A stretch of 64,000 nucleotides of DNA from Acidimicrobiales bacterium (lineage in GTDB: Bacteria > Actinomycetota > Acidimicrobiia > Acidimicrobiales > Bog-793), in NCBI GenBank assembly GCA_050008715.1, contig JBEKMC010000010.1:10545-74544 (forward strand). Direction: 5' to 3'. The number at the start of each line of letters is the position of its first letter. Position 1 is the first letter of the stretch. Shown here one piece after another: positions 12,151 to 41,492 of this stretch. The notes beneath the pieces are model-generated. The model had not been told where the DNA came from. It saw nothing but the letters and a program-made list of their open reading frames with translations, and did not search any database. The position numbers were made by a program, and so were the translations under genes.

Positions 12151-12338
12151 GGCACCAGCGTATTCGCGCCCGTCCCGGCGTCGTCCCGGCCGCAGGTCGC
12201 CGCCACCAGGGAATGACGTGGGTCACGTCTTGGTTATCCTCGCGCACCGCTCTGCGATAGTTACGGAGGTCGTTGGCTCGCCCTGACCGCCGGAGTATCG
12301 TCAGGCACCCTTCCTCGGGAGAGGAGACCCGAACACCT

Positions 12339-13448
12339 ATGGCGACTACCACGAGCTCGACGACACCGGCGAACCCGTCGGCCAAGAAGGCAGCCGGCCC
12401 GGCTCGCAAGACGGCTGCCAAGCAGGCCGAGGCACCAAACGGTCCGGCAACAGTCCCCACCGGCAAAGCCAGTGCCGGCGGGAGCAAAGGCACGCCGGAG
12501 AAGCTGCCGACGGCGACGCGGGTGACGACTGGGTCGAAAGCCACCGCCAAAGCCGGCGCGGACGCCGGAAAGCAGCCGGCCAAGGCGAGCGCCAAAGCAA
12601 GCGCCAAGGTTCCCGCCCCCAGCACTGCCAAGGCGGCGGCCTCCAAGACCGCAGGCACGAAGACTGTCGGAGGGACCAAGCCGGCTGCCACGAAGCCGGC
12701 TGCCACGAAGCCGACCGCCACGAAGCCGGCTGCCACAAAGCCAGCTGCCACGAAGCCGGCGGTCACGAAGCCGGTTGCTACGAAGCCACCCGCCACAAAG
12801 CCAGCTGCCACGAAGCCGGCGGTCACGAAGCCGGCGGTCACGAGGGCGGCCAAGGCAACGGGCGCCGCCACAAAGGACCCTCACGCGTCGTCGACCGGCA
12901 CGGAAGCGCCCGCGAAGGACGCGCCCCCGAAGGAGACATCCGCCGCTCCCACCACCGAGAGCCAAGAGGCGAAGACGTCCACGGCGGCCGGTTCGGCTCA
13001 CGCCCCGGCGAGATCCGGCTCCGGTCTGCTCTCGTCCCGAAGGCGCGACCTGCCACAACGACGCACGGAGGGTTACACCGAGGAACGATTCATCAATCAT
13101 CAGCGCCAGGCGCTGCAAACCGAGCGTGCGACGTATCTCGAGCAGGCCAAGAGCCTTCGGGCGGAGGCAGAGTCCCTCGTCGAGGAGATGGAGCCCGGCG
13201 ACATCCAGTTCGACGACGAATCAGGCGAGGGTGGCACGGTCACGGTCGATCGTGAGCGCGATCTCGCTCTGTCGGCGCAGGCGCTCGTCGCCGTCGACGA
13301 GATCGATCACGCGCTCGCGAAGATGGCGACGAACACGTACGGCATCTGCGAGAGCTGTGGACGCCTGATCCCGAAAGCCAGGCTCGAAGCGCTCCCGTAC
13401 GCCCGCCTTGACATCGACTGCAAGAGCGGAGGGCTGTCGCGACGTTGA
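12339..13448 (+). CDS. Fusion protein: Lys/Ala/Pro/Thr-rich histone-H1-like N-terminal region + DksA/TraR-type C-terminal domain (DdbA-like architecture)
   Basis: Frame of ORF 12273..13448. ATG 12339 follows GGAGAGGAG. The N-terminal ~170 aa are basic low-complexity sequence with TKPAA repeats. The C-terminus has the coiled-coil plus ICESCGRLIPKARLEALPYARLDIDC zinc-finger-like motif; only three Cys are visible. Confidence 0.8.
   Translation: MATTTSSTTPANPSAKKAAGPARKTAAKQAEAPNGPATVPTGKASAGGSKGTPEKLPTATRVTTGSKATAKAGADAGKQPAKASAKASAKVPAPSTAKAAASKTAGTKTVGGTKPAATKPAATKPTATKPAATKPAATKPAVTKPVATKPPATKPAATKPAVTKPAVTRAAKATGAATKDPHASSTGTEAPAKDAPPKETSAAPTTESQEAKTSTAAGSAHAPARSGSGLLSSRRRDLPQRRTEGYTEERFINHQRQALQTERATYLEQAKSLRAEAESLVEEMEPGDIQFDDESGEGGTVTVDRERDLALSAQALVAVDEIDHALAKMATNTYGICESCGRLIPKARLEALPYARLDIDCKSGGLSRR
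12675..12842 (+). repeat. 15-bp tandem repeat x11 (acgaagccggctgcc consensus; TKPAA pentapeptide)
   Basis: Eleven consecutive in-frame units read directly. A 2-3-unit block (acaaagccagctgcc acgaagccggcggtc...) recurs within the array. Confidence 0.9.
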
Positions 13449-13996
13449 CGGGCGAGCCGTCGCCTCGCGGCAGGCGCGTTCGCAGGGTCGCGGCAGTCGT
13501 CGCGATCGCAGCCCTCGTCGTCGCATTCGACCAGGTCACGAAGTCCCTCGCGGTCAGCCGCCTCCGGACCCACGACGTGCACGTGATCGGGCCGTTCTCG
13601 TTCCGGCTCGCCTACAACACCGGCGTCGCCTTCTCGCTCGGCACCGGGCTCACCGGTCCCATCGTGATCATGGCGGTCGTACTCGTCGTCGCCATTGCCT
13701 GGTTGGCCCGCGGGGTTCCCACCATGATGGCAGCCGTCGCCTTCGGGCTCGTCCTCGGCGGCGCCGTCGGGAACTTGTCGGACCGAGTGTTCAGGGGTGG
13801 CGGCGGCGGTGTCGTGGACTTCATCTACACGCGGTTCTGGCCGACGTTCAACGTTGCGGACTCGTGCATCGTCGTCGGGTGTTTCCTGCTCGCGATCGCT
13901 TTCGCCCGCGCCGGGCACCCCGCCCGACCCCCCGAAGGCGCCTCGGCGTCGTCGCTCGACATGGCGCCACCGCCGAGCCCCGGAGAGCCCGGGTGA
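13445..13996 (+). CDS. lspA: Lipoprotein signal peptidase (signal peptidase II)
   Basis: Four hydrophobic segments. Motifs NTGVAFS and FNVADSCIVVG. The TTG start overlaps the upstream stop. Confidence 0.88.
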   Translation: MTGEPSPRGRRVRRVAAVVAIAALVVAFDQVTKSLAVSRLRTHDVHVIGPFSFRLAYNTGVAFSLGTGLTGPIVIMAVVLVVAIAWLARGVPTMMAAVAFGLVLGGAVGNLSDRVFRGGGGGVVDFIYTRFWPTFNVADSCIVVGCFLLAIAFARAGHPARPPEGASASSLDMAPPPSPGEPG

Positions 13997-14937
13997 CGAC
14001 GGAGTCGTTCGTCGTGCCGGCTGCCCTTGCAGGTGAGCGCCTCGACCGGGCCTTGGCCCTGCTCACCGGTCGGCCCAGGGCCGACATCGGCCGGGCCATC
14101 GCAGCTGGTGGTGTGACGATCGCCGGCGAGCCGGCGCAACAACGCAGCCGTCATCTGAAGGCCGGCGAGCACATCTCGGTAGTGATCGAACAGCTTGCCG
14201 ACGTGATCGTCGAGGCCGTGGCGGCGGGGCACGGAGAGGTTGCCTTCGAGGTCGTCTACGACGATGCAGATGTGATCGTGGTCGACAAGCCGGTCGGTCT
14301 CGTCACCCACCCGGGCGCCGGCGTACACGCCAGCACGCTCGTCGGCGGTCTGCTCGACCGCTATCCGGAGCTCGCACAACTCCCGTTGCAAGGTTGCGGC
14401 TCTCCGGAACGGCCCGGCATCGTGCACCGTCTCGACAAGGAGACCTCCGGCCTGCTCGTCGTCGCTCGCTCGCCACGCGCCTTCCGTTCTCTCACCGAAC
14501 AGCTCGCCGCACGCACGGCAAAGCGCACCTACCTGGCGCTTGCGCTCGGGACTCTGGGAGCTGCGCACGGCGTCATCGACGCCCCCATCGGGCGTTCTGG
14601 ACGGGATCCCACCAGGATGGCCGTCGCCAACGCCGGCAGAGCGGCGCGGACGTCGTACACCGTGCTTCGGCGCTTAACCGAGCCACTCGAGGCGACGGAG
14701 CTGGAGCTACACCTCGAGACGGGCCGCACGCACCAGATCCGGGTGCATCTTGCCGCCATTGGACATCCGGTGCTCGGCGATGGCCGCTACGGCGGAGCGC
14801 GGCGATCGTCGGGCGTGACCCGGTTGATGCTGCACGCGCTGAGGCTGGGTTTCTTGGCACCGGGCAACGGGGAGCCGCTGGAGTTCGAGGTGCCGCCGCC
14901 CGACGAGTACGTCGTCTCGATAGGGCGCTTCACCTGA
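13993..14937 (+). CDS. RluA/RluD-family 23S rRNA pseudouridine synthase with S4 domain
   Basis: Frame of ORF 13408..14937. GTG 13993 overlaps the lspA stop. S4-like N-terminus (ERLDRALA), catalytic HRLDKETSGLLVVAR, and RTHQIRVH. Confidence 0.88.
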   Translation: MTTESFVVPAALAGERLDRALALLTGRPRADIGRAIAAGGVTIAGEPAQQRSRHLKAGEHISVVIEQLADVIVEAVAAGHGEVAFEVVYDDADVIVVDKPVGLVTHPGAGVHASTLVGGLLDRYPELAQLPLQGCGSPERPGIVHRLDKETSGLLVVARSPRAFRSLTEQLAARTAKRTYLALALGTLGAAHGVIDAPIGRSGRDPTRMAVANAGRAARTSYTVLRRLTEPLEATELELHLETGRTHQIRVHLAAIGHPVLGDGRYGGARRSSGVTRLMLHALRLGFLAPGNGEPLEFEVPPPDEYVVSIGRFT

Positions 14938-14945
14938 GAGGGTTC

Positions 14946-15782
14946 TCAGGCGGCGTCGTTGACGCCTTCGACCTCCGGCTGCTCAGCGAGGAAGGCGAGT
15001 GCGGACGCCTCGATCCGCCGAACGCGGCGCACGCCGATCCCGAGGGAACGGGCGGTCGACTCGAGAGAGGCGGGAGGGGTGCCGTCTAGGCCGAAACGCA
15101 ATCGCACGACCGACTGCTCGAGCTCCGGCAGGCGATCGATGGCGGCGTCGAGGCGACTCAGGCTGATGGAGTGGACGAGGTCCTCTTCGAAGGGCACGTC
15201 ATCCGCCGCAACCACGTCGCCGAGCGTGGCAGTCGCCTCACTCGTGAGCGGCTGGTCGAGGCTGGCTACGACGCGAGGGAGTCTCGCCTGGTCAGGGTCG
15301 CCTTCCAGCTCTGCTGCGAGCGCGTCCTCCGGAAGGCGGATCGCCCGTCCCTTGGACTGCACAGCCCGCTGGAGCGCCTGACGGATCCACCACGTGGCAT
15401 ACGTCGAGAAACGGAAACCCTTGCGCCAGTCGAACTTCTCGACCGCGCGCATCAAGCCGAACGTCCCTTCCTGCACGAGGTCGACCAGGTCGACACCGCG
15501 GCCCTGGTACCGGCGCGCCCAGTGCACGACGAGGCGGAGGTTCGACCCGATCATCTGCTGACGGGCCTCCTCGTCGCCGAGCTCGATCCTCTTTGCGAGC
15601 TCAACCTGGGCGTCAGCGCTGAGCAGGGGGTATTTACCCAGGTCGTCGAGGAACAGGCGCATCAGATCGGGCGCGTTGGAGCCGCTTCCGCCCACACCTC
15701 TCTCAGGCGACGTCGTCTCTCCTGCGGAGTACTCGGTAGTGGAATTCGCGGGAATTTTCGGCTCTCCTCTCATCGTTTCCAC
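14946..15782 (-). CDS. RNA polymerase sigma-70 family factor (group-2-like; no region 1.1)
   Basis: Region 2 reads NLRLVVHWARRY...DLVQEGTFGLMRAVEKFDWRKGFRFSTYATWWIRQA. Region 4 reads VVRLRFGL...ESTARSLGIGVRRVRRIE. The start is GTG 15782 or ATG 15773. Confidence 0.88.
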   Translation of the reverse strand: METMRGEPKIPANSTTEYSAGETTSPERGVGGSGSNAPDLMRLFLDDLGKYPLLSADAQVELAKRIELGDEEARQQMIGSNLRLVVHWARRYQGRGVDLVDLVQEGTFGLMRAVEKFDWRKGFRFSTYATWWIRQALQRAVQSKGRAIRLPEDALAAELEGDPDQARLPRVVASLDQPLTSEATATLGDVVAADDVPFEEDLVHSISLSRLDAAIDRLPELEQSVVRLRFGLDGTPPASLESTARSLGIGVRRVRRIEASALAFLAEQPEVEGVNDAA

Positions 15783-15855
15783 TCGTTACTCAGTACACAA
15801 CACCCCAAGGCGCCGGCTCATTCCGACCTCGCCCGCGGGTAACCTACGCGCCCTG

Positions 15856-16509
15856 ATGTCCGCTGAGTCCGTCCAGCTCGACCCATTCTCGCAGACGGGT
15901 GTGTCACGGCACTCGCAGTCCGGTGCGAAACACGTCCCGGGCAGGGTTTTCCTCGTCCGGCACGCCGCCACGGAGTGGAGCGCGGTCGGTCGTCACACGG
16001 GTCTTACGGATCTGCCGCTGCTCCCGGACGCCGAGGAAGCAGCTCGGGCACTGGGCCGCCGACTCGAGCACCTGCGGCCGCTGCTGGTGCTCTCGAGTCC
16101 CCTGCTCCGCGCCGTCGAGACGTGCCGGCTGGCGGGTTTCGGCGACGAGGTCGAGACGTCCCACCTGCTGCTCGAGATGGACTACGGCGACTACGAGGGC
16201 CTGACGACCGCCCAGGTCCGCGAGGCGCGCCCCGGTTGGGACCTGTTCAGGGACGGCTGTCCCGGCGGCGAGACGATCGAGGATGTCGGCAAGCGAGTCG
16301 ACTTGCTCCTGGAGCGACTCGTCAGCGATCGGGGGCTCGCCGACGGCGACGTCGCCCTCTTTGCCCACGGGCACGTTCTCCGGGTCCTCACGGCCCGTTG
16401 GCTCGGCCTCGAGGCAGCCGAGGCGCGACGGTTCGCGCTCGCGGCCGCCAGGATTGGAGTCCTCGACTGGGAGCACGAGTGGACCGTGGTCGGGGGCTGG
16501 AACCACTAG
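15856..16509 (+). CDS. Histidine phosphatase (phosphoglycerate-mutase-like) family protein
   Basis: Frame of ORF 15676..16509 with the start at ATG 15856. Contains FLVRHAATEWS...GRHTG (RHG-type motif) and a downstream HGHVLR. Confidence 0.75.
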   Translation: MSAESVQLDPFSQTGVSRHSQSGAKHVPGRVFLVRHAATEWSAVGRHTGLTDLPLLPDAEEAARALGRRLEHLRPLLVLSSPLLRAVETCRLAGFGDEVETSHLLLEMDYGDYEGLTTAQVREARPGWDLFRDGCPGGETIEDVGKRVDLLLERLVSDRGLADGDVALFAHGHVLRVLTARWLGLEAAEARRFALAAARIGVLDWEHEWTVVGGWNH

Positions 16510-16531
16510 CGGCCACTCGGTCGGTCGATTC

Positions 16532-16562
16532 GGGCCGCTCGATTGGGTCAGTCGAGCGGCCC
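16532..16562. terminator. Perfect 11-bp-stem hairpin between convergent genes (possible bidirectional terminator)
   Basis: GGGCCGCTCGA (16532-16542), a 9-nt loop, then TCGAGCGGCCC (16552-16562). The right arm overlaps the last codons of the Rrf2 gene. No clear U-tract. Confidence 0.45.
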
Positions 16563-16994
16563 GACGGTCGCGAACCCTCCCCGAGCCCTCGTCACCATGT
16601 CCGCCAAGGTGAAGGAATCCAGGTGGTGACGCATGTGCTCGCCCACCTCGGACCAGACGGTCAAGAGCACACACTGCCCCTCGTGGTCGCAGGCGCCGTT
16701 CTCGTGGGGCTGGCCGAAGTCGCCCGCCATGATGGGTCCGTCCACGGCGCTGACGATCTGACCGAGGGTGATCTGCGCCGGTGGGCGGGCAAGCACATAG
16801 CCGCCGCCGACCCCACGCTTCGATCGAACGAGGCCGGCGCCCTTGAGGGCGAGGAGGATCTGCTCGAGGTACGGCTGCGGCAACCCGGTGCGCTCGGCGA
16901 TGTCGCGAACCGAGGTCGGTGGGGCTTCACCCGCCCTCAAGGCGAGCGAGAGCAGCGCACGGCTGGCGTAGTCGCCCCTCGTCGAGACCTTCAC
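16548..16994 (-). CDS. Rrf2-family transcriptional regulator
   Basis: N-terminus MKVSTRGDYASRALLSLA; wHTH IAERTGLPQPYLEQILLALKGAGLVRSKRGVGGGYVLA; two Cys in GACDHEGQC. Confidence 0.88.
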   Translation of the reverse strand: MKVSTRGDYASRALLSLALRAGEAPPTSVRDIAERTGLPQPYLEQILLALKGAGLVRSKRGVGGGYVLARPPAQITLGQIVSAVDGPIMAGDFGQPHENGACDHEGQCVLLTVWSEVGEHMRHHLDSFTLADMVTRARGGFATVGPLD

Positions 16995-17057
16995 GTCCCC
17001 ATGCTACGGCGCGCCCCGGCGTCGCCCCCGGCCGACCCGCTGCGGGCGGCTCCTCAC

Positions 17058-17135
17058 CACGAGATCGGGATGGTCACGGCGAAATGCGGATGAATCACGA
17101 CGAAACGGGAATCGTCACAACGAAGTGGGAATGGG
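17058..17135. repeat. Four imperfect ~20-bp direct repeats (CACnnCGAAAnGGGAAT-like)
   Basis: Units start at 17058, 17075, 17096 and 17116. Units 3 and 4 match at about 16 of 20 positions. The array lies upstream of the Rrf2 gene and runs into the 3' end of the next gene. Confidence 0.55.
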
Positions 17136-18230
17136 CCGAGGCTCCGGTATCTCGTCCACACTGAACAAGTCAGAATTGGGCAAGTCAGAATTGGGTAAGT
17201 CAGCACCGGGCAAGCCAGCACTGGGCAAGGAGGCGTTCGGGTGTAGAGGAGTCTGCGCGGGCAGGCGGAGCGGCTCGCTCGATGCCGGAGCGCCGGCAAG
17301 CACCGCTGTCTGCGGGACCACCGCGCCCGAGAGATTGAGTGCGACTGACTCGTCCGGGTCGCCGACGATGAGCTTGGAGGACGACAAGGCCATGATCCCG
17401 ACCACCACCAAGGACAGTCCGAAGGCGGCGCCAAGGATCGGGAGCACTCCGGAGCGGATGTGCTCATGGAGCAGGGTCGCCCCGAGGATGACGCTCGCGA
17501 TCGGGTTGGCGGCTGCGAGGGCGGGCAGCGACCAGCGGATCGGGCCACTCTGGAACGCGCTCTGGACGAGGAACACGCCGCACAACAGGCTCCCGCAGAA
17601 CGCGTACAGCTCCCAGTTGCTCAACGTGTGTGTGATGACGGCACCGAGGCCGTGATGCAAGCTGCCGTCGATCCCTCGAGCCATCCCTTTTGCGAACGCC
17701 GCAGAAAGGCCGTTGATGAGTCCGCCTGCGCAGGCCAGCAAGCCGGCCTTCCATGTCGGTTTGCGGGAGGCGAGCGAGCAGCTCACGAGCACCAGCACGG
17801 CGAACCCGAGCGAGCCGAGGGCGATCGCCCAGCCTTCTCCCGAGCCGGTCCCGCTGCCTTTGCGGGGATCTGTCGCCACGAGCAGCACCACGAGGCCGAA
17901 ACACACCGTCACGGCGGCGAGCAGCTCCCGGGCGCCGGGTCGCCGGCTGTGCACCCAGATGGCATTGATGGGCAAGGCGAACAGCAGCCCGCACACGAGG
18001 ATCGGCTGCACCGACACGAGCGAGCCGTGCACGAGCGCGACGAGCTGCAGGGAGGTCCCGACGACGCTGGCACCGATTCCTGCCAGCCACAACGGGCGCC
18101 TGACGAGGCGCAACAGCAGGCTGAACCGCAGGTGATGCTCCGCAGGTTGGGCGATGGCGGCGTGCTGCTGCAACACGACGGCAACGGCAAAAGCCATGGC
18201 CGCGGCGAGACTGACCAGGATCACCAGCAC
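17115..18230 (-). CDS. Polytopic integral membrane protein (about 10 TM; DMT/EamA-like suspected), with a repeat-containing C-terminal tail
   Basis: 371-aa ORF that is hydrophobic throughout. The antisense ORFs are Arg/Pro-rich. Family assignment is by general resemblance only. Confidence 0.6.
   Translation of the reverse strand: MLVILVSLAAAMAFAVAVVLQQHAAIAQPAEHHLRFSLLLRLVRRPLWLAGIGASVVGTSLQLVALVHGSLVSVQPILVCGLLFALPINAIWVHSRRPGARELLAAVTVCFGLVVLLVATDPRKGSGTGSGEGWAIALGSLGFAVLVLVSCSLASRKPTWKAGLLACAGGLINGLSAAFAKGMARGIDGSLHHGLGAVITHTLSNWELYAFCGSLLCGVFLVQSAFQSGPIRWSLPALAAANPIASVILGATLLHEHIRSGVLPILGAAFGLSLVVVGIMALSSSKLIVGDPDESVALNLSGAVVPQTAVLAGAPASSEPLRLPAQTPLHPNASLPSAGLPGADLPNSDLPNSDLFSVDEIPEPRPIPTSL
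17166..17225 (-). repeat. In-frame 15-bp tandem repeat x4 in the C-terminal tail of the membrane protein (LPNSD-like pentapeptides)
   Basis: On the + strand: caagtcagaattggg x2 (identical), then taagtcagcaccggg, then caagccagcactggg. Confidence 0.8.
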
Positions 18231-18286
18231 CTGTTCAGGTTATGCGACGCCGGGCATGCGCCGCTTTCGCCTGCGCTGCCGCCAGA

Positions 18287-19585
18287 ATGAGGTACATGCG
18301 ATTCCGACTCGTGGTTCCAGCGGCCGTCGTGCTCGCGGCGTCGTTGGCGGCCTGCGGGAACGCCAAGACGACCGTGAACAACGGCGGCAACTCGAACGGC
18401 GTCACGGCTCATTCGATCGTCGTGGGCGGCATCGCCTCGGTGACCGGCCCGCTCCCGCAGGCGTTCGCGCCAGTGTTCGACGGAGTCAGCGCGTACTTCG
18501 ACATGGTGAACGCCTCGGGGGGCATCAACGGCCGGACGATCAAGTTCGCCTACCAGCTCGACGACGAGTCGGACCCCGCCATCGACGTGCAGCAGGCACG
18601 GGCCCTCGTGCAGTCGGACCACGTGTTCGCCGTCGTCGGTGTGGCCACGCCGAGCTTCAACGGGGCGTCGTATCTGGCGGCCAACAGCGTGCCGACCTTC
18701 GGCTACAACGTCAACCCGCAATGGTCGGACGGCCAGAGCCTCTTCGGTTACGACGGCTCGTACATCGATTTCGAGCACCCCGGCCCCGAGTCCGCCTATC
18801 TGGCCGAGCAGCTGGGATCGAAGCGGGTCGGCATCATCGCCTACAACCTCTCCCAGTCGGCGGACGGCTGCATCGGCGTCGCCAACACGATGATGAAGTT
18901 CCACATCCCGGTCGCCTTCGAGGATCTCTCGATCTCGCCGCCCGCGATCGACCTGAGCGCCGACGTCAACCGGATGCGCGCCCACGGTGTCGACTTCGTC
19001 GCCAGCTGCCTCGACCTCAACGGGAACCTCGTGCTCTCACGCGCCCTGCAGGCGGCCGGAATGGGATCGGTCGCCCAGTACTGGCTCGACGGCTACGACG
19101 AGGCTGCCATCCGGACGAGCGCGGCCCTGATGGACGGCGTCTATCTCCTGATCGGTCATGTGCCGTTCGAATCGGGCGAGTCCCAGCCGCAGCGCTACCC
19201 GGCCATGGCGCTCTACCTGAAGGAGATCCGGAAGTACTTCCCTGGTGACGAGCCGAGCGAGCCGTCGCTCGCGGGCTGGGTGAGCGCCGAGATGTTCTCC
19301 GACGCCCTCAGAGCGATCGGGAGCGATGTCACGAGGGCGCGGCTCGTGGCAGCGGTGAACTCGCTCACCGCGTATACCGGAGGGCTGATGGCCCCGATCG
19401 ACTGGAAAGCCGAGCATCGCGAGGTCGGGCCGGTGGACTGCAACGTGTACGTGCGGGCCAACAGCACAGAGTTCGTGCCGGTCTTCGGCTCGTCGCGCAC
19501 CGTGTTCACGTGTTTTCAGTACCCGCAGCCCTCTTCGAACAAGGTGGTCGTCGTGCCACCTCCCGCCTTCACGCCCGGAGGCTGA
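18287..19585 (+). CDS. ABC transporter substrate-binding lipoprotein, Leu/Ile/Val-binding (PBP1) family
   Basis: Signal peptide with lipobox (AASLAACG). The start is ATG 18287 or 18296. Followed by LivHM/G/F-type genes. Confidence 0.8.
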   Translation: MRYMRFRLVVPAAVVLAASLAACGNAKTTVNNGGNSNGVTAHSIVVGGIASVTGPLPQAFAPVFDGVSAYFDMVNASGGINGRTIKFAYQLDDESDPAIDVQQARALVQSDHVFAVVGVATPSFNGASYLAANSVPTFGYNVNPQWSDGQSLFGYDGSYIDFEHPGPESAYLAEQLGSKRVGIIAYNLSQSADGCIGVANTMMKFHIPVAFEDLSISPPAIDLSADVNRMRAHGVDFVASCLDLNGNLVLSRALQAAGMGSVAQYWLDGYDEAAIRTSAALMDGVYLLIGHVPFESGESQPQRYPAMALYLKEIRKYFPGDEPSEPSLAGWVSAEMFSDALRAIGSDVTRARLVAAVNSLTAYTGGLMAPIDWKAEHREVGPVDCNVYVRANSTEFVPVFGSSRTVFTCFQYPQPSSNKVVVVPPPAFTPGG

Positions 19586-33713: not shown

Positions 33714-34088
<375 letters not shown>

Positions 34089-34214
34089 ACACACCGGCCT
34101 GTAGGTGCGCTAAAATATGCTCTGGCCTGCGACTTTGTCCTCTCCGCTGGTAGCCGTTGGTGACCGAAAAACACCGCAGAACCTGGCGCAGTTCGCGTCC
34201 AACGCCCGCGACGC

Positions 34215-34469
34215 GTGAGCCGTCCGCCTCTCCGGGCGGAGCACGTGCTGGCTGCGCTCAACTGTCATGGCGTCGAGTACCTGATCATCGGCGCCTTCGC
34301 CGCCATCGCCCAGGGAGCGCCGATCGACGCGACCTATGACGTGGACGTCACACCGAGGCGAAGCCCTGAGAATCTTCGGCGGCTCTCCGATGCCCTCCGG
34401 GACTTGGGCGCACGGATCCGTGTCTGTTGCGATATCGCCATATCCAGTGCGATGAGCAATATGTGGTGA
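34215..34469 (+). pseudogene. Possible truncated nucleotidyltransferase-fold gene fragment
   Basis: 84-aa ORF whose segment LIIGAFAAIAQGAPIDATYDVDV resembles a minimal NTase G-x(n)-DxD N-terminal half. The ORF ends inside the hipB operator region, well short of a typical full domain. Confidence 0.3.
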
Positions 34470-34516
34470 TATCGCCACATTGCCTACTACACTCCATAAT
34501 GTTGCGATAGCACAAC
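34429..34516 (+). promoter_or_regulatory. hipBA promoter/operator region: three GCGATA-core palindromic boxes plus -35/-10 candidates
   Basis: GCGATATCGC (34429-38, perfect palindrome), TGGTGATATCGCCA (34464-77) and GTTGCGATAGCACAAC (34501-16). Candidate -35 is TCGCCA (34472-77) and candidate -10 is CATAAT (34495-500). RBS AGGAGG precedes ATG 34533. Confidence 0.5.
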
Positions 34517-34532
34517 AGGAGGACTTGGGCAG

Positions 34533-34772
34533 ATGTGGTTCCGAATCAGCAACGACAAGAGCCTCTCGGACACTCTTGCGGCAATTCGGCGGGAAAGCGG
34601 CGTCTCGCAGGCAGAGCTTGCGGAGCGGATCCAATCGGACCGAACCACCGTGGTCCGTCTCGAGAGCGGACGCCTCGAGGCGTTCACTCGTCTCACCTCC
34701 GCCTTCGCCATGCTCGGGTATGACCTGATCGCGGTTCCCCGTGGTGCGACCGTGACCGTGGAGGAGCGCTGA
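34533..34772 (+). CDS. hipB: XRE-family HTH antitoxin (HipB-like)
   Basis: 79 aa with the HTH SQAELAERIQSDRTTVVRLESG. Its stop overlaps the hipA ATG (TGATG). Confidence 0.8.
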   Translation: MWFRISNDKSLSDTLAAIRRESGVSQAELAERIQSDRTTVVRLESGRLEAFTRLTSAFAMLGYDLIAVPRGATVTVEER

Positions 34773-36013
34773 TGGCGGATCGCACTCTCAACGTCTGGCT
34801 CGGCGGTCAACAGGTCGCGGTGCTTCATCAGGGCCGTGCCGATCTCACCCTCGAATACCTCGGCAACGAGGTCGCCCGATCGGGTACTGGCTCTGTCGTA
34901 CTCTCAGCTTCGCTCCTCGTCCGACGGCGCCCGTATGTTGGCAATTCAGTCGTGTACTGGCTTGAGGGTCTGCTTCCGGAGGGTGAGGCGCGGACCACGC
35001 TCGAAGCCATGCACAATGTCCGGCGAGGCGACACGTTCGGTCTCCTCGCGGCAATCGGGCGCGAATGCGCCGGCGCGATCTCCTTCCATCCAGAAGGAGC
35101 AGCGCCGAGCGGGCCCGGCACACCTCGGCCGATTACCCAAGACGAGCTCGCTCAGGCGATCGTCGATCTCCCGGCTCACCCTCTCGGTGCAAGTGAGGAG
35201 ACGGGGATTTCACTCGGTGGCCTCCAGAGCAAGCTCCTCGTCTGTCGCGTAGACGACGGTTGGGGACTACCAACGGACGGCGCTCCGAGCACGCACATCA
35301 TGAAGCCAGAGCCTGCGGAGCATCCCGGGCTCGCCGCAGGCGAGGAGTACTCCATGCGACTCGGCCGAGCTGCAGGAATCGACACGGCAGGCGCTGACCT
35401 CTTGATGATTGCTGGGCGCCGCGTGCTCGTCGTCGAACGCTTCGACCGTGAATACGTGGACGGGGCCATCCAGCGTCTCCACCAAGAGGACGCATGCCAG
35501 GCGCTCGGGCTCGACTCACGCGATCGTAAGAAGTACCAAGAGGCCACTGGCGGCCCTTCTTACGGACAAATGGCTGCGCTGCTCAGGGCGCACGCCATCG
35601 ACGTTTCGAGCGAGCTCAAGAAGTTGGCCAAGGCGATGATCCTCACGGTTGCCGTCGGCAACACCGATGCCCACGGAAAGAACCACGGCTTCCTCATCAA
35701 GAACGGAAGCCTCTCCTTCTCACCGGTCTACGACATGGCTCCCACCGTGCAGTTCGTCACGAGGCGCACGCTCGCCCTGTTTGTCGGAGGCGAAAACCGC
35801 TTGTGGCGAGTCACGAAGATGCACCTCGAGCTCGAGGCTCGATCGTGGGGCTTGAGCGGTCGCGAGGCCGTAGACGCCGTCGAAGAAACGACGTCGAAGA
35901 TCGTTTATGCGCTCGACGACATGAGTGAGGGCGAGGCGGCCCGAGAGGTAATTGGTTCGATCCGAGAGTGCGCGTTGCGCCTCGCGGCGAGTAACTCCCT
36001 CTCGACGAGCTGA
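34772..36013 (+). CDS. hipA: HipA-family serine/threonine kinase toxin
   Basis: N-terminal coupling domain (WLEGLLPEG, RECAGAISF), GGLQSKLL, HIMKPE, ERFDR, catalytic GNTDAHGKNHGF, and SPVYDMAPT. Confidence 0.9.
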   Translation: MADRTLNVWLGGQQVAVLHQGRADLTLEYLGNEVARSGTGSVVLSASLLVRRRPYVGNSVVYWLEGLLPEGEARTTLEAMHNVRRGDTFGLLAAIGRECAGAISFHPEGAAPSGPGTPRPITQDELAQAIVDLPAHPLGASEETGISLGGLQSKLLVCRVDDGWGLPTDGAPSTHIMKPEPAEHPGLAAGEEYSMRLGRAAGIDTAGADLLMIAGRRVLVVERFDREYVDGAIQRLHQEDACQALGLDSRDRKKYQEATGGPSYGQMAALLRAHAIDVSSELKKLAKAMILTVAVGNTDAHGKNHGFLIKNGSLSFSPVYDMAPTVQFVTRRTLALFVGGENRLWRVTKMHLELEARSWGLSGREAVDAVEETTSKIVYALDDMSEGEAAREVIGSIRECALRLAASNSLSTS

Positions 36014-36241
36014 GGAGCAACTCCCCGCGCTCCGCCGGTTCCTCCGCGACCACGGCAGCGGATGATCCTGGAGGCCCGCGTGCTCGCTCCTGGCCCATCC
36101 GGGAACGTGTCGCGGAGCGGCTCGGAGCGGCTGGCTGACCCTCTTCGCACCTGGCGAATCACCGGCGAGCTGAGGACCAGCTGAGGACTGGGCCGATTTT
36201 TTGACCGCGAAAGTGCTGGTCACAGCCATGTTTGGCCTGTT

Positions 36242-36273
36242 CCCCGCCCATAGGCCGACTCGCCACATTCACC
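36242..36273 (+). repeat. Direct repeat, right copy (orphan duplicate of the rnpB 3' end)
   Basis: ccccgccCataggccgactcgccacaTTcacc. No upstream RNase P sequence accompanies it. Confidence 0.85.
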
Positions 36274-36459
36274 CGCTTGAGCAGGATACTTGCAGCTACG
36301 AAGGCGGGCTTGTCCGCGGAATGTCCGCACGGGTGCTGTGCGAGTCGGACGCCCGATGAACGGCAGCACATGGCGCCGCAGGTGAGTTCGACTTGGGCGG
36401 CCGTGCTCGCACGGTGGGCCTTTACGGCTCGCCATCCTAGCGGTGCGTCGCCGAACCCT

Positions 36460-37518
36460 TCAGCCGCTGATGACCGTCAGCTCACCTTCGTTGCCGTTGT
36501 CCTCGTCTGCCCAGTAGACGTAGATCCTGTCCGTCGACGGATCAACTCTGGCCGTGGCCGGCCCCTCGCCTACCACGATCCTCGCGATGATCTTGTGCGT
36601 GGCGGCGTTGACAGCCGTCACCGTGTCGCTTCCGAAGTCCGGCACGTACACCGTGTCGGTCGAAGCATCGACATCGAGCTGGGCTGGTTGGCCTCCCACT
36701 GACTCGGTGCGAATGACCGTGTTGTGCTTGCCGTTGATCACCGACATCGTGTCGGCGCCATTGTTGCTGACGTAGACGTCATCGCTCGATTGATCGACGG
36801 CGATGCCGTCGACGAAGCCACCGTTGTCGACCCCGACCTTGATTTTGGCGACCTGCCTGTTTCGCTTCCCGCTCACGACCGACACGAATCCAGCCGCCGT
36901 GAGGTGGTCTACATAGACGGTGTCAGTCGCCGAGTCCACGGCGAGGTCGTCAGGCTCGGCTCCCACCTTGACGGTCGCGGTCACCTTGTTCCTCTTGCCG
37001 CTGATGACCGAGACAGTCCCCGAATATTCGTTCGCAACGTAGATGGTGTCAGTGGTCGTGTCTACCCCGATGCCGTGAGGGCCACTGCCGACCCTGACGG
37101 TGGCAACGACCTTGTTTGTCTTGCCGTTGATGACGGTCACCGACCCTCGAATGGAGTTGTTGCTGGCGTAGACGAGGTCTGTCTTTGGATCCACTGCGAG
37201 TCCCCAAATGGTCGAAGGAGTCTCGATCGTGCGGGTGAACTTGTTCGTCTTGGCGTCGAAGACGCACACGTCGAGAGTCCCTGAGACATAGACCGTGTCG
37301 GACGTGCTGTCCACCGCAACGCCGCCTCCGCTGCTGCACTCAGAGGTGGCGACGGTCGCGATCACCGTCGGTCGCCCTGCAGGAGAGGCCGATGCATTCC
37401 CGCCACCGATCAACGCCACCAGCACGATCAGGCCGGTGGCCCCTGCCACCGTCCTCCTCGACCATCGAGGCCGTCTCGCCTGCACCGATCGTCTGGCCTG
37501 AGTCGAGTTCTCTGTCAT
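36460..37518 (-). CDS. Secreted YVTN/YncE-type beta-propeller repeat protein
   Basis: Frame of ORF 36460..37662 with the start at ATG 37518. TM/signal segment GATGLIVLVALIGGGNASA. About seven ~40-aa repeats of the type D..TDTVYV.N..S.TVSVI.GK.NKV. Confidence 0.8.
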   Translation of the reverse strand: MTENSTQARRSVQARRPRWSRRTVAGATGLIVLVALIGGGNASASPAGRPTVIATVATSECSSGGGVAVDSTSDTVYVSGTLDVCVFDAKTNKFTRTIETPSTIWGLAVDPKTDLVYASNNSIRGSVTVINGKTNKVVATVRVGSGPHGIGVDTTTDTIYVANEYSGTVSVISGKRNKVTATVKVGAEPDDLAVDSATDTVYVDHLTAAGFVSVVSGKRNRQVAKIKVGVDNGGFVDGIAVDQSSDDVYVSNNGADTMSVINGKHNTVIRTESVGGQPAQLDVDASTDTVYVPDFGSDTVTAVNAATHKIIARIVVGEGPATARVDPSTDRIYVYWADEDNGNEGELTVISG

Positions 37519-37820
37519 GATCCCATCCCTCTTCCGTAGCTCGAGCCAAAGCGGCCACCTGTGACGCGCGCCTCGCAGCGGGGTCGGCAAAGAGTAGATC
37601 CCTCGACGGCCCCCCGTTCTTTGGTCCATGATTGCGCGCGCAACCAACGTAGGACGGTGCATCCCAACTTCGTCAAGGCATTGATGGACGCTGACCTAGC
37701 GATCCCCGACTTCGTGCCAGCTCGGCCGGCGTGGATGGAGCGAGTGCTCGCGAATGTTCGCCCGCCTGGAACGGCTCGATCCGGGCACCTTCGCTCGAAG
37801 TCGTGAATGTCGCTGGGGAC

Positions 37821-38333
37821 TCAGCTGTCGGGCGTGACCGCATCCAATCGGCGCCGAACCTCCGACGTGTCCACGCCGAGAGCGCCCAGCAGCACCGCCG
37901 CAGCATCTGGTGGTTGGAGAGTGAGGATCTGGGCCAGTACCTGCTGGGCCGTGACGTAGAGCCTCCGACGGTTGGACTTCGACGCTTCCTCGAGCACTTT
38001 CTTTGCCGCGGGCGTGATGCGGAGGCGATCTTTTTGCGCGACGTCCCTGAGCCTCGGCTTCCTCGGCACGGCGCGCATCGGCAGTGGGGGAGCGTCGGCG
38101 CCGGGCCCCAGGCCCAGGGCACCCAGGGCTTCGTGATCGAGCGACGCAAGCGCCTGGCGAGCTTGCTGCAGGTTCACGCCCAACACGACTTCGACCGAGG
38201 GATCCTCGAACAAGGCGAGCAGGAGGTGATCGGTGCCATATCGGCGATCACCTCGGCGACGAGCCTCCTCAGCGGCCTGCATACAGATGGCCCAGGCGTG
38301 AAGCGTCTCTGGCGCAACGGATTCGGTGGTCAT
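37821..38333 (-). CDS. Stand-alone Clp_N (Clp R) double-repeat domain protein
   Basis: Frame of ORF 37821..38405 with the start at ATG 38333. Repeat 1 is GTDHLLLALFEDPS...; repeat 2 is ITPAAKKVLEEA...VTAQQVLAQIL. No AAA+ module follows. Confidence 0.75.
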   Translation of the reverse strand: MTTESVAPETLHAWAICMQAAEEARRRGDRRYGTDHLLLALFEDPSVEVVLGVNLQQARQALASLDHEALGALGLGPGADAPPLPMRAVPRKPRLRDVAQKDRLRITPAAKKVLEEASKSNRRRLYVTAQQVLAQILTLQPPDAAAVLLGALGVDTSEVRRRLDAVTPDS

Positions 38334-38542
38334 GATGACTCCTTGCTGTACTTGGCATGTGCGGATTGGCGCGTGACGCCCAAAGCGTCTCCGATCTGCT
38401 GCCACGACCAGCCTTTTTCCCGGGCCGAGGCGACGTGGTGCGCTTCGACCCTCTCAGCCAGGCGATGTAGCGCCAACGAGGCGCGAAGGCCAATTGCCGG
38501 GTCATCCGACGAGAGATTCAGGTTGAGGTCTTCGACATCCAT
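38330..38542 (-). CDS. Small HTH DNA-binding protein (70 aa)
   Basis: The last 71 codons of ORF 38330..39439, starting at ATG 38542. HTH is GWSWQQIGDALGVTRQSAHAKY. ATGA overlap with the Clp_N gene. Confidence 0.7.
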   Translation of the reverse strand: MDVEDLNLNLSSDDPAIGLRASLALHRLAERVEAHHVASAREKGWSWQQIGDALGVTRQSAHAKYSKESS

Positions 38543-38544
38543 GA

Positions 38545-38591
38545 CTGTCAGTATAGACTGACATTGGCGATTTGTCAACCTAAACTGACAG
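38545..38591 (-). promoter_or_regulatory. Near-consensus sigma-70 promoter (TTGACA-17-TATACT) with ACTGACA operator repeats; the transcript is predicted to be leaderless
   Basis: On the - strand: TTGACA (38578-38573), a 17-nt spacer, TATACT (38555-38550), then 7 nt to ATG 38542. The ACTGACA motif occurs at 38557-63 and 38584-90, and inverted at 38545-52. Confidence 0.65.
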
Positions 38592-38661
38592 AACAGATCG
38601 CCGCACCGGAGTGCCCCAGATGGCAACGGGGTGTCTCTGCCGGCACCGTGCGACTGTGCGA

Positions 38662-40098
38662 CTATGCGAGCTGTTCGCTCGCGAGCTTGGCCCCCACCCG
38701 GAAGGCCTCCTCGTTGAGCGGGATCATGGCGCACTTGTCGTGCAGTGCAGCCCGGATGGCGGTGAGGAAGCTCTCGACAGGAAGGACTTTCGTCGCTCCC
38801 TGCAGGGCGCCGAGAGCCACGACGTTCTTGACGACGACGGCGCCGAGGTCTTTGGCAACCGTGGCAAAGGGTACGGCCACCGTCCGCACGCCGGCCGGGA
38901 GGCCGTCGGGCGGCCCGCTGATGACGGAACTGTCGTAGATGACGATCCCGCCCGCCAGCACGGTCGGGCCGAACTTCGCCAGGCTGGGAGCGTTGAACGC
39001 TACGAGCACGTGCGGGTGAGGAGCCGACGGCGAGAGCACCTCGTGCGCTGCCACGTGGACGTCGGCGTACGAAGTGCCGCCGCGAGACTCCGGTCCATAG
39101 CTCGGGATGTGCGTCGCGTCGTAGCCTTCGTTGATCGCCGCCCGAGTGAGGATCATCGCCGCCGTCTGAGCGCCGTCGCCGCCGGACCCGGCAAACTTCA
39201 AGCTGATGTCCTCCGGGTCGATGTGGGTCGGGAACCTCTCGGCAAACCGAGGCGGCCGCTCGAGGGTGGCGTTCACGACGCCCAGTGCTGCTTCGGCCTC
39301 GAAGGTCGCCGTCGGGATGACGGGGTATGTCGGTTCGTCCGTGGTGTCCTTCTTCACGCCGAGCGGGAAGATCGGCACCATGTTGTCCTTCACCCAGTTC
39401 TCCGCCTCCTCGGGGTCGAGACCGAGGTAGAGCGGGCACTCGGAGAGGACCTCGATGAAGGCGAAGCCGGTACCGGCGACCTGCAGCTCGAGAGCCTTCT
39501 TGATGGCGCGCTTGGCGTGAGTCCGCCGCCGATTGTCGTAGAGGGCGACACGTTCGACGTACACGGGCCCGTCCAATCCGCCGATCAACTCCGCCATCTT
39601 CAACGGCTGACCGGCCGAGAGTGTGCGGCCCGCCGGGGTGGTGCTCGTCTGCTGGCCGATGAGCGTCGTCGGAGCCATCTGACCGCCGGTCATTCCGTAG
39701 ATGGCGTTGTTGATGAAGATGACGGTGATCGGGATGCCGAGCTGGGCGGTGCTGACAATCTCGGCGAGACCGATGGAGGCGAGATCGCCGTCACCCTGAT
39801 AGGAGATCACGATCGAGTCTGGGTTCGCCGTCTTCTGGCCGATCGCAACTGCCGGAGCGCGGCCGTGGGCGGCCTGGGTGTTGCCGACGTCGAAGTAGTA
39901 GTACGAGAAGACCGAGCAACCGACGGGCGACACGAGGACCGTGCGGTCCTGCACGCCGAGCTCGTCGATGGCCTCAGCGAGGTATTTCTGAGCAAGGCCA
40001 TGCCCGCAGCCCGGGCAGTAGGTCGTCGAGTGGGCGTTGAGCCCCTCGGCGTGGGCATGGCGCTCGAACTGGCGGTAGAAGACCGAAGTCGGCATCAC
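38662..40098 (-). CDS. 2-oxoacid:ferredoxin oxidoreductase, fused beta (TPP-binding) + gamma subunit
   Basis: Beta part: YCPGCGHG and GDGD...IG. Gamma part: FAGSGGDGAQTAAMIL...GPESRGG. 478 aa. Confidence 0.85.
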   Translation of the reverse strand: MMPTSVFYRQFERHAHAEGLNAHSTTYCPGCGHGLAQKYLAEAIDELGVQDRTVLVSPVGCSVFSYYYFDVGNTQAAHGRAPAVAIGQKTANPDSIVISYQGDGDLASIGLAEIVSTAQLGIPITVIFINNAIYGMTGGQMAPTTLIGQQTSTTPAGRTLSAGQPLKMAELIGGLDGPVYVERVALYDNRRRTHAKRAIKKALELQVAGTGFAFIEVLSECPLYLGLDPEEAENWVKDNMVPIFPLGVKKDTTDEPTYPVIPTATFEAEAALGVVNATLERPPRFAERFPTHIDPEDISLKFAGSGGDGAQTAAMILTRAAINEGYDATHIPSYGPESRGGTSYADVHVAAHEVLSPSAPHPHVLVAFNAPSLAKFGPTVLAGGIVIYDSSVISGPPDGLPAGVRTVAVPFATVAKDLGAVVVKNVVALGALQGATKVLPVESFLTAIRAALHDKCAMIPLNEEAFRVGAKLASEQLA

Positions 40099-41492
40099 CG
40101 CACCTCCTGCAGGCTCAGGACGTGCTCGACGATCTCGTCCTGCGACGGGAGGATTCCACCCATGCGGCGCACGTGGCTCATGGGCGGCGGCGCGTGGACG
40201 CCGGCGTGGCTGAGGGCAAGGCGAAGCTCGTCTTCCAGCTGGCCGCTGCTCGCCTCAACGATGACGAGGTGCCCCACTCGGTCGAGCAGGGTGAGGAGGG
40301 CATCGATCGGGAAGGGCCACAGCGTGATGGGGCGGAAGAGGCCCACCTTCACGCCCTTTTCCCGCAGATCTTTGATGGCGCCTTTCGCCAGCTGCGCCGG
40401 CGTGTTGCACGCCACGAGAACGACGTCTGCGTCCTCGCACCGGTAGATGTCGGCCCGCTGTTCCTGGCGCGTCATCTCCTCGTACTTCTCGTTGAGGTGG
40501 ACGTTGTGCCGCTCGAGGTCGACTTCTGAGAGGTTGATCGAGCAGATCAGGTTGCCGCGGTGCGAGCGGTCGCCGAACACGGCCCACTCGGGGACCCCCG
40601 GCACGACCATCTCGCCTGGGAGCCGCACCTTCCCGGTCATCTGGCCGAGGTATCCGTCGCCCACGATGACGACGGGGTTGCGGTACTTGAAGGCGAGCTC
40701 GAAGGAGAGCATCGCCAGGTCCAGCATCTCCTGTGGCGTCGAGGGGGCCAGCACGATGGCGTGGGTGTTGCCGTGGCCGAGTCCTCGGCAGACGAGTTTG
40801 ATGTCCGCCTGCTCGGGACCGATGTTGCCGAGACCAGGGCCGCCACGCATGATGTTCACGAAGACGGCGGGAACCTCCGAGCCGATCATGTACGAGATGC
40901 CCTCGAGCATCAGGCTGAAGCCCGGCGAGCTCGTGAAGGTCATGCAGCGCTTCCCGGCGCCGCCGGCTCCGTACATCATGTTGACGGTCGCAACTTCGCT
41001 GACGGCCTGCACGAAGACGCCATCGAGCTGGGGCAGAACCTTCGCCATCAGCTCAGCCCCCTCCGTCGACGGGGTGATCGGATACCCGAAGACGTGACGG
41101 CAGCCGGCGAGGAGGGAGCCAACGGCCACGGCGTAGGTTCCTTTCACGACGAGGGGCTCGCGCATCGGCAACGGAAGCGTGCTGTCTGGCCAAGGTTCCG
41201 GCACGGGGGCATCGAACGGCCGCGGCCCGAAGAGTACGGCGGGATCCACCATCTCGAAACCCACCTCGTCACCTTGCGGCCGGAGGCCATAGGGCTCAGG
41301 ACAGGCGTCGTAGCAAAGACCGCACCCGTTGCACTGGGTCAGGTCGAGAACGATCGGCACCAATCCCGTCTCCGGATTGATCTCCGTGCCGAGTGTGAAG
41401 CAGTTCTTGATGCATGAGCTGATGCAGCGCCCGCACCCCTTGCAGTACTCCGGTATGACGAAGGGCCTGGGTCGTTCGGCCACTGTGGTCAT
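40095..41492 (-). CDS. 2-oxoacid:ferredoxin oxidoreductase, fused delta (2x[4Fe-4S]) + alpha subunit
   Basis: The N-terminus has CKGCGRCISSC and CNGCGLCYDACP. An alpha-subunit core follows (GYPITPSTE, MMYGAGGAG). 4-nt overlap with the downstream gene. Confidence 0.85.
   Translation of the reverse strand: MTTVAERPRPFVIPEYCKGCGRCISSCIKNCFTLGTEINPETGLVPIVLDLTQCNGCGLCYDACPEPYGLRPQGDEVGFEMVDPAVLFGPRPFDAPVPEPWPDSTLPLPMREPLVVKGTYAVAVGSLLAGCRHVFGYPITPSTEGAELMAKVLPQLDGVFVQAVSEVATVNMMYGAGGAGKRCMTFTSSPGFSLMLEGISYMIGSEVPAVFVNIMRGGPGLGNIGPEQADIKLVCRGLGHGNTHAIVLAPSTPQEMLDLAMLSFELAFKYRNPVVIVGDGYLGQMTGKVRLPGEMVVPGVPEWAVFGDRSHRGNLICSINLSEVDLERHNVHLNEKYEEMTRQEQRADIYRCEDADVVLVACNTPAQLAKGAIKDLREKGVKVGLFRPITLWPFPIDALLTLLDRVGHLVIVEASSGQLEDELRLALSHAGVHAPPPMSHVRRMGGILPSQDEIVEHVLSLQEVR

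Follow-up and report, generated by a model that had tools for sequence, protein, structure and literature searches.

The window analysed here, a 64-kb stretch of DNA from an Acidimicrobiales bacterium, carries a 2.2-kb islet immediately downstream of its RNase P RNA gene, rnpB. The gene (33717–34088, forward strand) is a full-length class A RNase P RNA gene (Rfam RF00010, 235.3 bits, E 2.9e-75, model positions 1–367) and the sole Rfam match in the window; neither a tRNA nor a tmRNA gene was found in the 64 kb. An earlier note on this DNA had described the rnpB 3' end as duplicated in the same orientation, and a pattern search confirmed this. The last 25 nt of rnpB, which include the 3' strand of helix P1, form with the following 7 nt a 32-mer (34064–34095) that recurs on the same strand at 36242–36273. 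The copies agree at 29 of 32 positions (three mismatches) and at 24 of the 25 positions internal to rnpB, and ungapped similarity between them reaches 38 nt at 87%. The first 25-nt block (CCCCGCCTATAGGCCGACTCGCCAC, 34064–34088, forward strand) is followed by weaker similarity on to 34095/34101, and its counterpart (CCCCGCCCATAGGCCGACTCGCCAC, 36242–36266, forward strand, 24/25) by similarity on to 36273/36279. A second match to the 32-mer appeared in none of 100 dinucleotide-preserving shuffles. No third copy of the 25-nt core exists in the 64 kb at up to 7 of 25 mismatches, the sole extra match being the 5' strand of P1. Since the window yields a single Rfam match and the DNA to the left of copy 2 is not rnpB, this copy is an orphan with no other RNase P sequence attached, as the note had also held.

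Only three open reading frames (ORFs) lie between the two cores: a small ORF, hipB and hipA. hipB (34533–34772, forward strand) encodes a predicted 79-aa helix-turn-helix (HTH) antitoxin (Pfam HTH_31, 2.1e-07, and HTH_3, 2.2e-06; NCBIfam couple_hipB, 2.1e-05), and its stop codon overlaps the start of hipA (TGATG). hipA (34772–36013, forward strand) encodes a predicted 413-aa Ser/Thr kinase toxin of the HipA family (Pfam HipA_C, 1.8e-47; Couple_hipA, 4.3e-18). This protein is full length, keeps the catalytic motif GNxDAHGKN, and matches HipA from Shewanella (PDB 4pu5) with E 1.5e-28 and HipA from E. coli with E 1e-25 to 1e-26; its GNTDAHGKN and YDM stretches align with the corresponding motifs of the Shewanella protein. 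The control region ahead of hipB (34425–34517, forward strand) contains three 18-bp palindromes (34425–34442, 34462–34479 and 34500–34517; spacing 37–38 nt; consensus TGTKGYGATATCRCMACA) and a sigma-70-like promoter match between operators 2 and 3 (34472–34500). None of 100 shuffles contained three such palindromes, the number found upstream of hipB in the window. The Pfam domains, the catalytic motif and the palindromes bear out the description of an apparently intact hipB–hipA pair with its own operator array, which would make hipBA a type II toxin–antitoxin (TA) pair.

The small ORF (34215–34469, forward strand, 84 aa) matches a family of 75–117-aa hypothetical proteins over residues 1–70. 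The homology stops at ARIRV (34424), and the first hipB operator begins directly after it (34425). That the homology ends at operator 1 supports one half of the phrase "truncated NTase-like ORF" used before: the ORF is truncated. The other half, its identity as a nucleotidyltransferase (NTase), is unsupported, given that the ORF has no Pfam match at E ≤0.01, a sole NCBIfam match that is spurious, no PDB match below E 0.8, and no similarity to the AbiEii protein of a related locus (L004, see below); a Pfam domain was found in 0 of 22 homologs. A G-x9-DxD-like motif was recognised by eye only.

Integrase-bearing elements at rnpB

Using the histidine phosphatase gene upstream of rnpB as query, we fetched 80 genome loci, all from Acidimicrobiales and allied metagenome-assembled genomes (MAGs); loci are cited by number (L001 and onwards) where they need to be told apart. 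In the six closest (L001–L006), rnpB lies behind the same two upstream genes, and none of the window proteins encoded between 34.1 and 44 kb occurs downstream of it. Because the upstream genes are conserved while the downstream proteins are unshared in these six loci, the 3' end of rnpB is an exact synteny break. The inserts that follow rnpB differ in every relative compared. L001 and L005 have rnpB with neither an element arm nor a repeat; both belong to other genera, and their flank similarity to the window extends over only ~20 nt. In L004 the rnpB 3' end is repeated without mismatch over 31 nt at a distance of 5,071 nt downstream, and the left edge of this repeat is that of the window; the enclosed islet (11915–17016, 5.07 kb) is free of integrase and holds an S8 peptidase gene and an AbiEi/AbiEii pair between the cores. 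In the close relative L002, ~90 nt of window-like post-rnpB sequence is followed by GAGGAC repeats and then by a tyrosine integrase gene. The integrase reading frame of L002, a GTDB representative MAG, is broken by one frameshift at ~12140–12170 near VDFLR; either the gene is a true pseudogene or the assembly contains an error here. A number of contigs have one of their ends at rnpB or inside it (L003, which ends at 11474, L092, L105, L116 and others), as would be expected if variable inserts at this position disrupt metagenome assembly.

With its reading frame repaired, the L002 integrase matches more than 4000 homologs, of which the best 120 are 66–92% identical, 359–361 aa long and equipped with PF22022 and PF00589. 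The clade is called type I in the following, and the tyrosine integrase of the intact elements described below has 361 aa. Three clade members (P0005, P0004 and P0014) were located by exact sequence in L081/L083, L084 and L088. All three begin 176–177 nt past a full-length rnpB on the same strand, and a second copy of the rnpB 3' end closes each element after 9,071 nt (L081/L083), 11,091 nt (L084) or 7,236 nt (L088). The gene upstream of rnpB varies (histidine phosphatase in L081, exonuclease VII in L084), so that rnpB itself is the common part. A metagenome scan with the family alignment produced 80 more loci. For integrases at least 65% identical, the rnpB 3' end lies 100–330 nt upstream in 45 of 45 loci with enough upstream sequence; at 15 further loci of this identity class the upstream sequence is too short to tell. 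The positive loci, 46 when shorter upstream sequence is admitted, represent 38 lineages at 95% nucleotide identity. Full-length RF00010 matches (model positions 1–367) were obtained for 7 of 7 tested loci with inserts, as for the window: rnpB is the integration target, and it remains intact. In other contigs the rnpB 3' repeat occurs only at rnpB and at element ends, and the left edge of the repeat, at which …ACAGAA gives way to CCCCGCC, is common to every intact element examined.

Intact elements in related Acidimicrobiales contigs measure 7–11 kb and occupy the same position behind rnpB. Their order is core, left arm of ~177 nt, integrase, variable genes, a TrwC/AAA_30 relaxase of ~1,000 aa, an HTH_17 gene, cargo, DUF433, right arm and core. 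The HTH_17 protein is a putative excisionase. PhdYeFM/YoeB, TacA/GNAT and Fic modules are found as TA cargo. An integrase (PF00589), TrwC and AAA_30 are present in L081/L083, L084, L088 and L097, and the gene tables of these loci list no type IV secretion, coupling-protein or FtsK-like family (Pfam annotation only). By gene content, the intact relatives would thus be integrative mobilizable elements (IMEs), which combine an integrase and a relaxase with no conjugation apparatus of their own in sight. The closest relative of the window is L097, with a 10.85-kb element (integrase, TrwC, HTH_17, Fic and DUF5615/DUF433). Its 32-mer at the rnpB-side attachment site (attL) is identical to that of the window, and the flank of its distal site (attR) resembles the flank at the same place in the window.

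At rnpB, intact elements and remnants often stand side by side in tandem arrays (L088, L094, L004, L096 and L128). L088 has three successive core copies; its segment 17035–18487 (1.45 kb), also delimited as 17035–18520, is an integrase-less islet between rnpB 3' copies that encodes an antitoxin and Fic. L081 and L128 show a degenerate left arm beyond attR. In L098 and L129 an orphan core precedes the integrase; these arrangements look like tandem junctions, not circles.

Alignment of the intact elements shows that their arms are conserved almost base for base. The left arm consists of the core, ~20 variable nt, GCTAAAAT, CTGGCCTGCGGTTTCGTCC, GGTGACCGAAAAACACCGCTGTA, GTCCTC, four GAGGAC, a ribosome-binding site and the integrase start. 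The right arm carries GA(G/A)CTGAGGACCAGCTGAGGAC ~70 nt ahead of the core, then …TTGAGCTGTT and the core. One motif repeated on both arms is the usual signature of arm-type integrase sites, and we regard the GAGGAC repeats as putative binding sites of this kind. In all type I left arms, GCTAAAAT, which is -10-like, sits in a small, variable inverted repeat ~45 nt past the core start (window 34094–34125). It may serve as the promoter of the integrase gene or belong to a hairpin with a regulatory role.

Both arms left remnants in the window, and blastn matches the islet to intact elements only at 34089–34177 and 36162–36286. The left remnant (the integrase-proximal P' arm, 34089–34177, forward strand) contains GCTAAAAT at 34109–34116 as well as GGTGACCGAAAAACACCGC, and is 77–89% identical (blastn) to the post-rnpB arms of L098, L097, L133, L096, L081–L084, L002 and others. 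It ends at …AACACCGC; all five repeats (GTCCTC and four GAGGAC) and the integrase are deleted. The right remnant (P arm, 36162–36241, forward strand) is ~76% identical (blastn) to the arms ahead of the second core in L097, L096, L081, L083, L090, L128 and L004. Its two GAGGAC (36172–36177 and 36183–36188) lie ~70 nt from the core, as they do in intact elements, and it ends in …CCTGTT. CTGAGGAC is not enriched across the window (5 sites against 3.4 expected); only its paired placement in the arm is meaningful. To the right of the 25-nt block, attL of both the window and L097 has the element's ACACACC and attR has (A/T)TTCACC; this comparison places the crossover inside the 25-nt block.

Taken together, tyrosine-integrase elements of one family occupy the last 25 nt of rnpB, restore the gene on insertion and leave behind an orphan copy; of such an element the window retains the two ends and no part of the machinery. 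The repeats had been interpreted before as a footprint of site-specific integration. The same position in relatives indeed holds integrase-bearing elements with same-edged repeats, both ends of the islet are homologous to the att arms of these elements, and gene order is conserved upstream of rnpB with nothing shared downstream.

Origin and decay of the hipBA islet

Tblastn and profile searches found no integrase between the repeats of the window, and no TrwC or HTH_17 gene occurs there. The insert is therefore a remnant, not a complete integrative element at an RNA gene 3' end. We consider it likely, at roughly 85%, that deletions reduced an IME integrated at the 3' end of rnpB to the present 2.2-kb islet. 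An ancestral IME of ~8–11 kb would have brought its own copy of the 25 nt, and its integration would have rebuilt rnpB as attL, with the orphan copy as attR. At least two deletion steps may then have removed everything from the integrase through HTH_17, starting at position +90 of the left arm, and left the cargo beside the right arm. The hipBA addiction module could be the reason why the islet survived. Retention driven by TA modules is supported by the recurrence of integrase-less, TA-type islets at rnpB, with AbiE in L004 and Fic in L088.

A less-deleted form of the same islet was found in another sample (L169; JGI 3300018046, Ga0187851_10009682). This contig is 99.84% identical to window positions 34172–40420 and has retained a further ~175 nt of the left arm, in which three of the five repeats (GTCCTC and two GAGGAC) are still present. 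The corresponding deletion joint of the window (34176–34179) shows CACCG microhomology. Because L169 retains left-arm DNA that the window lost, decay went stepwise. The earlier note had left open whether the element is a decayed remnant or is mobilised in trans; the missing integrase, relaxase and left repeats, together with the intermediate state of L169, show decay directly. The rnpB gene of L169 is only 92.7% identical to that of the window and lies in a different upstream context (an HSP20-like gene); either the entire segment moved from one lineage to another, or the contig was assembled as a chimera at the shared core.

Several points weigh against the remnant interpretation. The roles of integrase, excisionase and arm sites are assigned from homology and position. 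Every relative comes from a metagenomic assembly, and that of L169 could be chimeric at the shared core. The empty-site analogues L001 and L005 come from genera other than that of the window's source and share ~20 nt of flank. hipBA and the small ORF are absent from ~60 sampled elements; their presence in the ancestral element is presumed, and they may have entered later. Finally, the low GC content of the islet does not end at copy 2, since the right flank (36274–38600) has 63.0% GC.

This last point touches the question of where the foreign DNA ends. The islet has 63.4% GC, the window 68.4% and the left flank 69.4%; the lowest-GC 2-kb segments of the whole 64 kb all fall within 34.4–36.7 kb, and GC at third codon positions (GC3) is 0.73 in hipA against 0.83–0.87 in neighbouring native genes. 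The statement that the islet is more AT-rich than its flanks is consequently correct at the left boundary and incorrect at the right one. Composition fails as a marker of the right boundary, because low GC runs on to ~38.6 kb. The right flank with island-like composition (36267–38600), which may be native or foreign, contains a beta-propeller gene (YNCE/NHL-like, 36460–37662, reverse strand) and a Clp_N-domain gene. Three diverged 110-nt units at 36644–37146 inside the beta-propeller gene are ordinary blade repeats.

Between copy 2 and the beta-propeller gene, a minus-strand stretch of ~25 codons (36381–36455, FGDAPLGWRAVKAHRASTAAQVELT) corresponds to residues 61–85 of the integrase clade. It was the top match with both profiles when hmmsearch was run over 592 window ORFs with the type I profile (E 8.5e-3) and that of a second, more distant rnpB clade, type II (E 5e-4; see below). 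Hhalign aligned 25 columns at 52% identity (E 2.2e-5, probability 76%), BLASTP gave 2e-4, and the 25 residues match the conserved WRxxQVHRxSTAAQVE segment. Its orientation, facing copy 2, is that of the integrase genes in the convergent type II elements. With type I, type II and phage TripleJ integrases as queries, tblastn gave no match in the window at E ≤1e-3. We regard the stretch as a probable tyrosine integrase relic, for which the evidence is weak and the position telling. The claim that no integrase or recombinase ORF is visible thus stands between the repeats and needs amending to the right of copy 2.

The low-GC flank, the relic and the tandem layouts of the second clade suggest a tandem array of two decayed elements in the window. 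A broader version of this idea is that the repeat pair does not enclose the whole foreign segment, which would instead comprise at least two decayed elements in tandem, or a composite island, reaching to at least 38.6 kb and possibly to at least 40.4 kb; we put it at somewhat less than even odds, and the same holds for its corollary that the hipBA islet is only the rnpB-proximal module. Beyond composition and the orientation of the relic, it draws on tandems of type I and type II elements in L094, L096 and L004, on the lack of synteny with relatives over 36.3–44 kb, and on the 99.84% identity of L169 through 40420. The flank moreover starts with CTTGAGCAGGA and heptamer repeats, like the left ends of type II elements: it begins CGCTTGAGCAGGA, followed by TGTCCGC-N4-TGTCCGC, a sequence similar both to the start of type II elements and to the flank of L001. 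Since this similar ~20-nt motif follows rnpB in the element-free L001, it may be native. The absence of a third core at up to 7 of 25 mismatches also speaks against an array, the relic is short and statistically modest, and the kor-like genes at 38.7–41.5 kb have native-like GC3 (0.86–0.87). As a match to an empty site the flank after copy 2 was rejected, because the similarity spans only ~20 nt and the motif is ambiguous, starting type II elements as well.

A different history for the cargo is conceivable, in which hipBA was not carried by the original element and instead inserted later into the decayed remnant, truncating the small ORF. The exact coincidence between the end of small-ORF homology and the first operator (34424/34425) would be explained in this way. 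Searches for hipA, hipB and the small ORF in all 168 fetched loci identified no progenitor element, the sole match being an unrelated HTH; hipBA is in none of the sampled elements, and the closest HipA homologs (57–64% identity) sit in ordinary, unrelated chromosomal contexts and not at rnpB. TA modules are, on the other hand, typical cargo beside the right arm of intact elements, and hipBA has neither a transposase gene nor repeats nor an att site of its own at its borders. On balance we find a late arrival of hipBA unlikely, though well worth keeping in mind.

Less probable still is that the islet remains in working order. Cis-mobilizable elements (CIMEs) are att-flanked remnants of the ICESt1/ICESt3 family in Streptococcus thermophilus (work of Pavlovic, Bellanger, Guedon and colleagues). 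They are known to be mobilized by accretion, and their target is the 3' end of a protein gene, fda. In its sequence features the islet would qualify as a CIME, being flanked by the att sites of a known family and devoid of recombination and transfer modules. Excision and transfer could then be performed by the integrase and excisionase of an incoming rnpB-specific element that integrates beside it. Such neighbours are plausible given the common tandems of intact elements and remnants at rnpB; both cores and the proximal arms are kept, with two right-arm GAGGAC intact at the conserved distance, and a 99.84% identical islet beside a 92.7% identical rnpB in a different upstream context could reflect transfer. 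Against mobility stand the deletion of all five left-arm GTCCTC/GAGGAC repeats, the mismatch in the 25-nt core of attR, the lack of a related integrase in the 64 kb, and the possible chimerism of L169. With its left arm-type sites lost and a mismatch in the core, the islet would probably be recombined poorly even by an integrase acting in trans. A functional CIME therefore seems improbable to us, and the deletion remnant of an IME that we favour would no longer be self-mobile.

That the 32-mer pair is a product of chance, a dispersed repeat (the refuting case named in the earlier note) or a local duplication unrelated to site-specific recombination can practically be dismissed: nothing beyond the shortness of the repeat speaks for it, and it is refuted by the 0 of 100 shuffles with a second match, by the presence of just two copies in 64 kb, by the same repeat with the same left edge bounding integrase-bearing elements in dozens of independent contigs, and by the homology of the arms beside both copies to att arms.

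Probable further rnpB-targeting layouts and known systems

A second integrase clade (type II), 46–57% identical, has the rnpB 3' end converging on the integrase stop codon (L138, L141, L142, L146–L148, L153–L156 and L158). Its arm repeats differ (GTGACAC or GTCCGC), and L094, L096 and L004 contain remnants of it arranged in tandem with type I elements. Type II is either an independent or a diverged rnpB-targeting layout. Among deposited phages and plasmids, no integrase exceeding 40% identity to the type I clade was found. The best phage match, 40% identical, is the integrase (gene 37) of the cultured Arthrobacter phage TripleJ (NC_049470). Beginning 17 nt past its stop codon is an rnpB-3'-like 26-mer, ACAGAACCCGGCGTATCGGTCAACCC (L173 2585–2610). 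This 26-mer is probably the phage attachment site (attP), which would make a cultured phage an rnpB integrator; literature searches returned nothing on the attP of TripleJ.

Scanning IMG/VR with the Acidimicrobiales-specific core gave no match, and a general rnpB 3' motif gave 25 viral contigs (L174–L198). Full rnpB genes are present in L174, L175, L179 and L180. By tblastn, a convergent tyrosine integrase adjoins rnpB in L175, L179 and L180 (a fragment in the last case), and none was detected beside rnpB in L174. Four contigs (L177, L187, L189 and L185, TripleJ itself included) have only an orphan rnpB 3' piece with an adjoining integrase. We lean slightly towards the general view that rnpB is a widespread and overlooked class of att site, used in at least three integrase/att layouts (the co-oriented IME clade of Acidimicrobiales, the convergent 46–57% clade, and temperate actinophages such as TripleJ), at which decay produces tandem arrays with TA modules as preferential survivors. 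If the TripleJ lead holds, integration into rnpB can be tested in a cultured phage–host pair.

That mobile elements integrate site-specifically into tRNA and tmRNA genes is textbook knowledge, and island-finding tools are built around such targets. TIGER/Islander distinguishes tRNA/tmRNA, protein-coding (CDS) and intergenic sites only (PMC12424338). Under this scheme an island at rnpB would be counted as intergenic. Integration of phage phiEf11 into ffs, the gene for 4.5S/signal recognition particle RNA, was presented in 2025 as a novel attachment site, in a report that lists tRNA/tmRNA and csRNA, and not rnpB, as non-coding RNA targets (PMC12540744). Full-text literature searches returned no report of rnpB as an attachment site, in agreement with the remark in the earlier note that it is not a commonly described target; a prior mention may nevertheless exist.

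An integrase clade with 45 of 45 loci at rnpB would add a new target class that pipelines would misfile as intergenic or miss. The islet of the window is itself a fossil of modest interest, and the larger result is this target class. Integrases with a defined 25-bp target in a conserved, single-copy, essential gene would be attractive safe-harbour tools for Actinomycetota. The natural series from intact element through partly deleted forms to a TA-only stub suggests that addiction modules outlive their carrier elements.

Among known systems, CIMEs resemble the islet as att-flanked remnants that lost integrase, excisionase and transfer genes, occupy the site of a live family and often stand in tandem. 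In contrast to them, the window remnant also lacks the left arm-type repeats. The actinomycete integrative and conjugative elements (AICEs) pSAM2 and SLP1 integrate at tRNA genes and use an FtsK/TraB-like translocase together with a Rep protein. With AICEs and with MOB_F/TrwC IMEs, the intact rnpB elements share an actinobacterial host, an integrase N-terminus of the form MASI-KR-GRYR, an attB at the 3' end of an RNA gene and a size below 15 kb; unlike AICEs they carry a TrwC relaxase-helicase, have no translocase in sight and target rnpB. The TA cargo resembles characterised HipBA systems (E. coli HipA, PDB 3dnt/3tpd; Shewanella, 4pu5) in an HTH antitoxin gene that overlaps the HipA kinase gene, in the Couple_hipA and HipA_C domains, in the GNxDxHxKN motif and in several palindromic operators upstream. 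Its similarity to solved HipA structures is modest (phmmer E ~1e-26 to 1e-28), and its operators (TGTKGYGATATCRCMACA) depart from the E. coli pattern TATCC-N8-GGATA.

Like phiEf11 at ffs (PMC12540744), the rnpB elements integrate site-specifically, over a short identity segment, into a housekeeping gene for a structured RNA other than tRNA and tmRNA; the gene, the host phylum (that of Enterococcus) and the type of element (a temperate phage) are different. Islands and prophages at tRNA and tmRNA 3' ends (Williams 2002 NAR 30:866; Islander/TIGER, PMC12424338) agree with the rnpB elements in the tyrosine integrase that adjoins the att site, the RNA gene 3' end carried by the element, the rebuilt gene, the direct repeat that bounds the element, the tandem arrays, and the TA and defence cargo; they differ in the target, which here is rnpB. 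The mechanism is thus the classical one of tRNA and tmRNA islands, and what differs is the apparently undescribed target of a large integrase clade.

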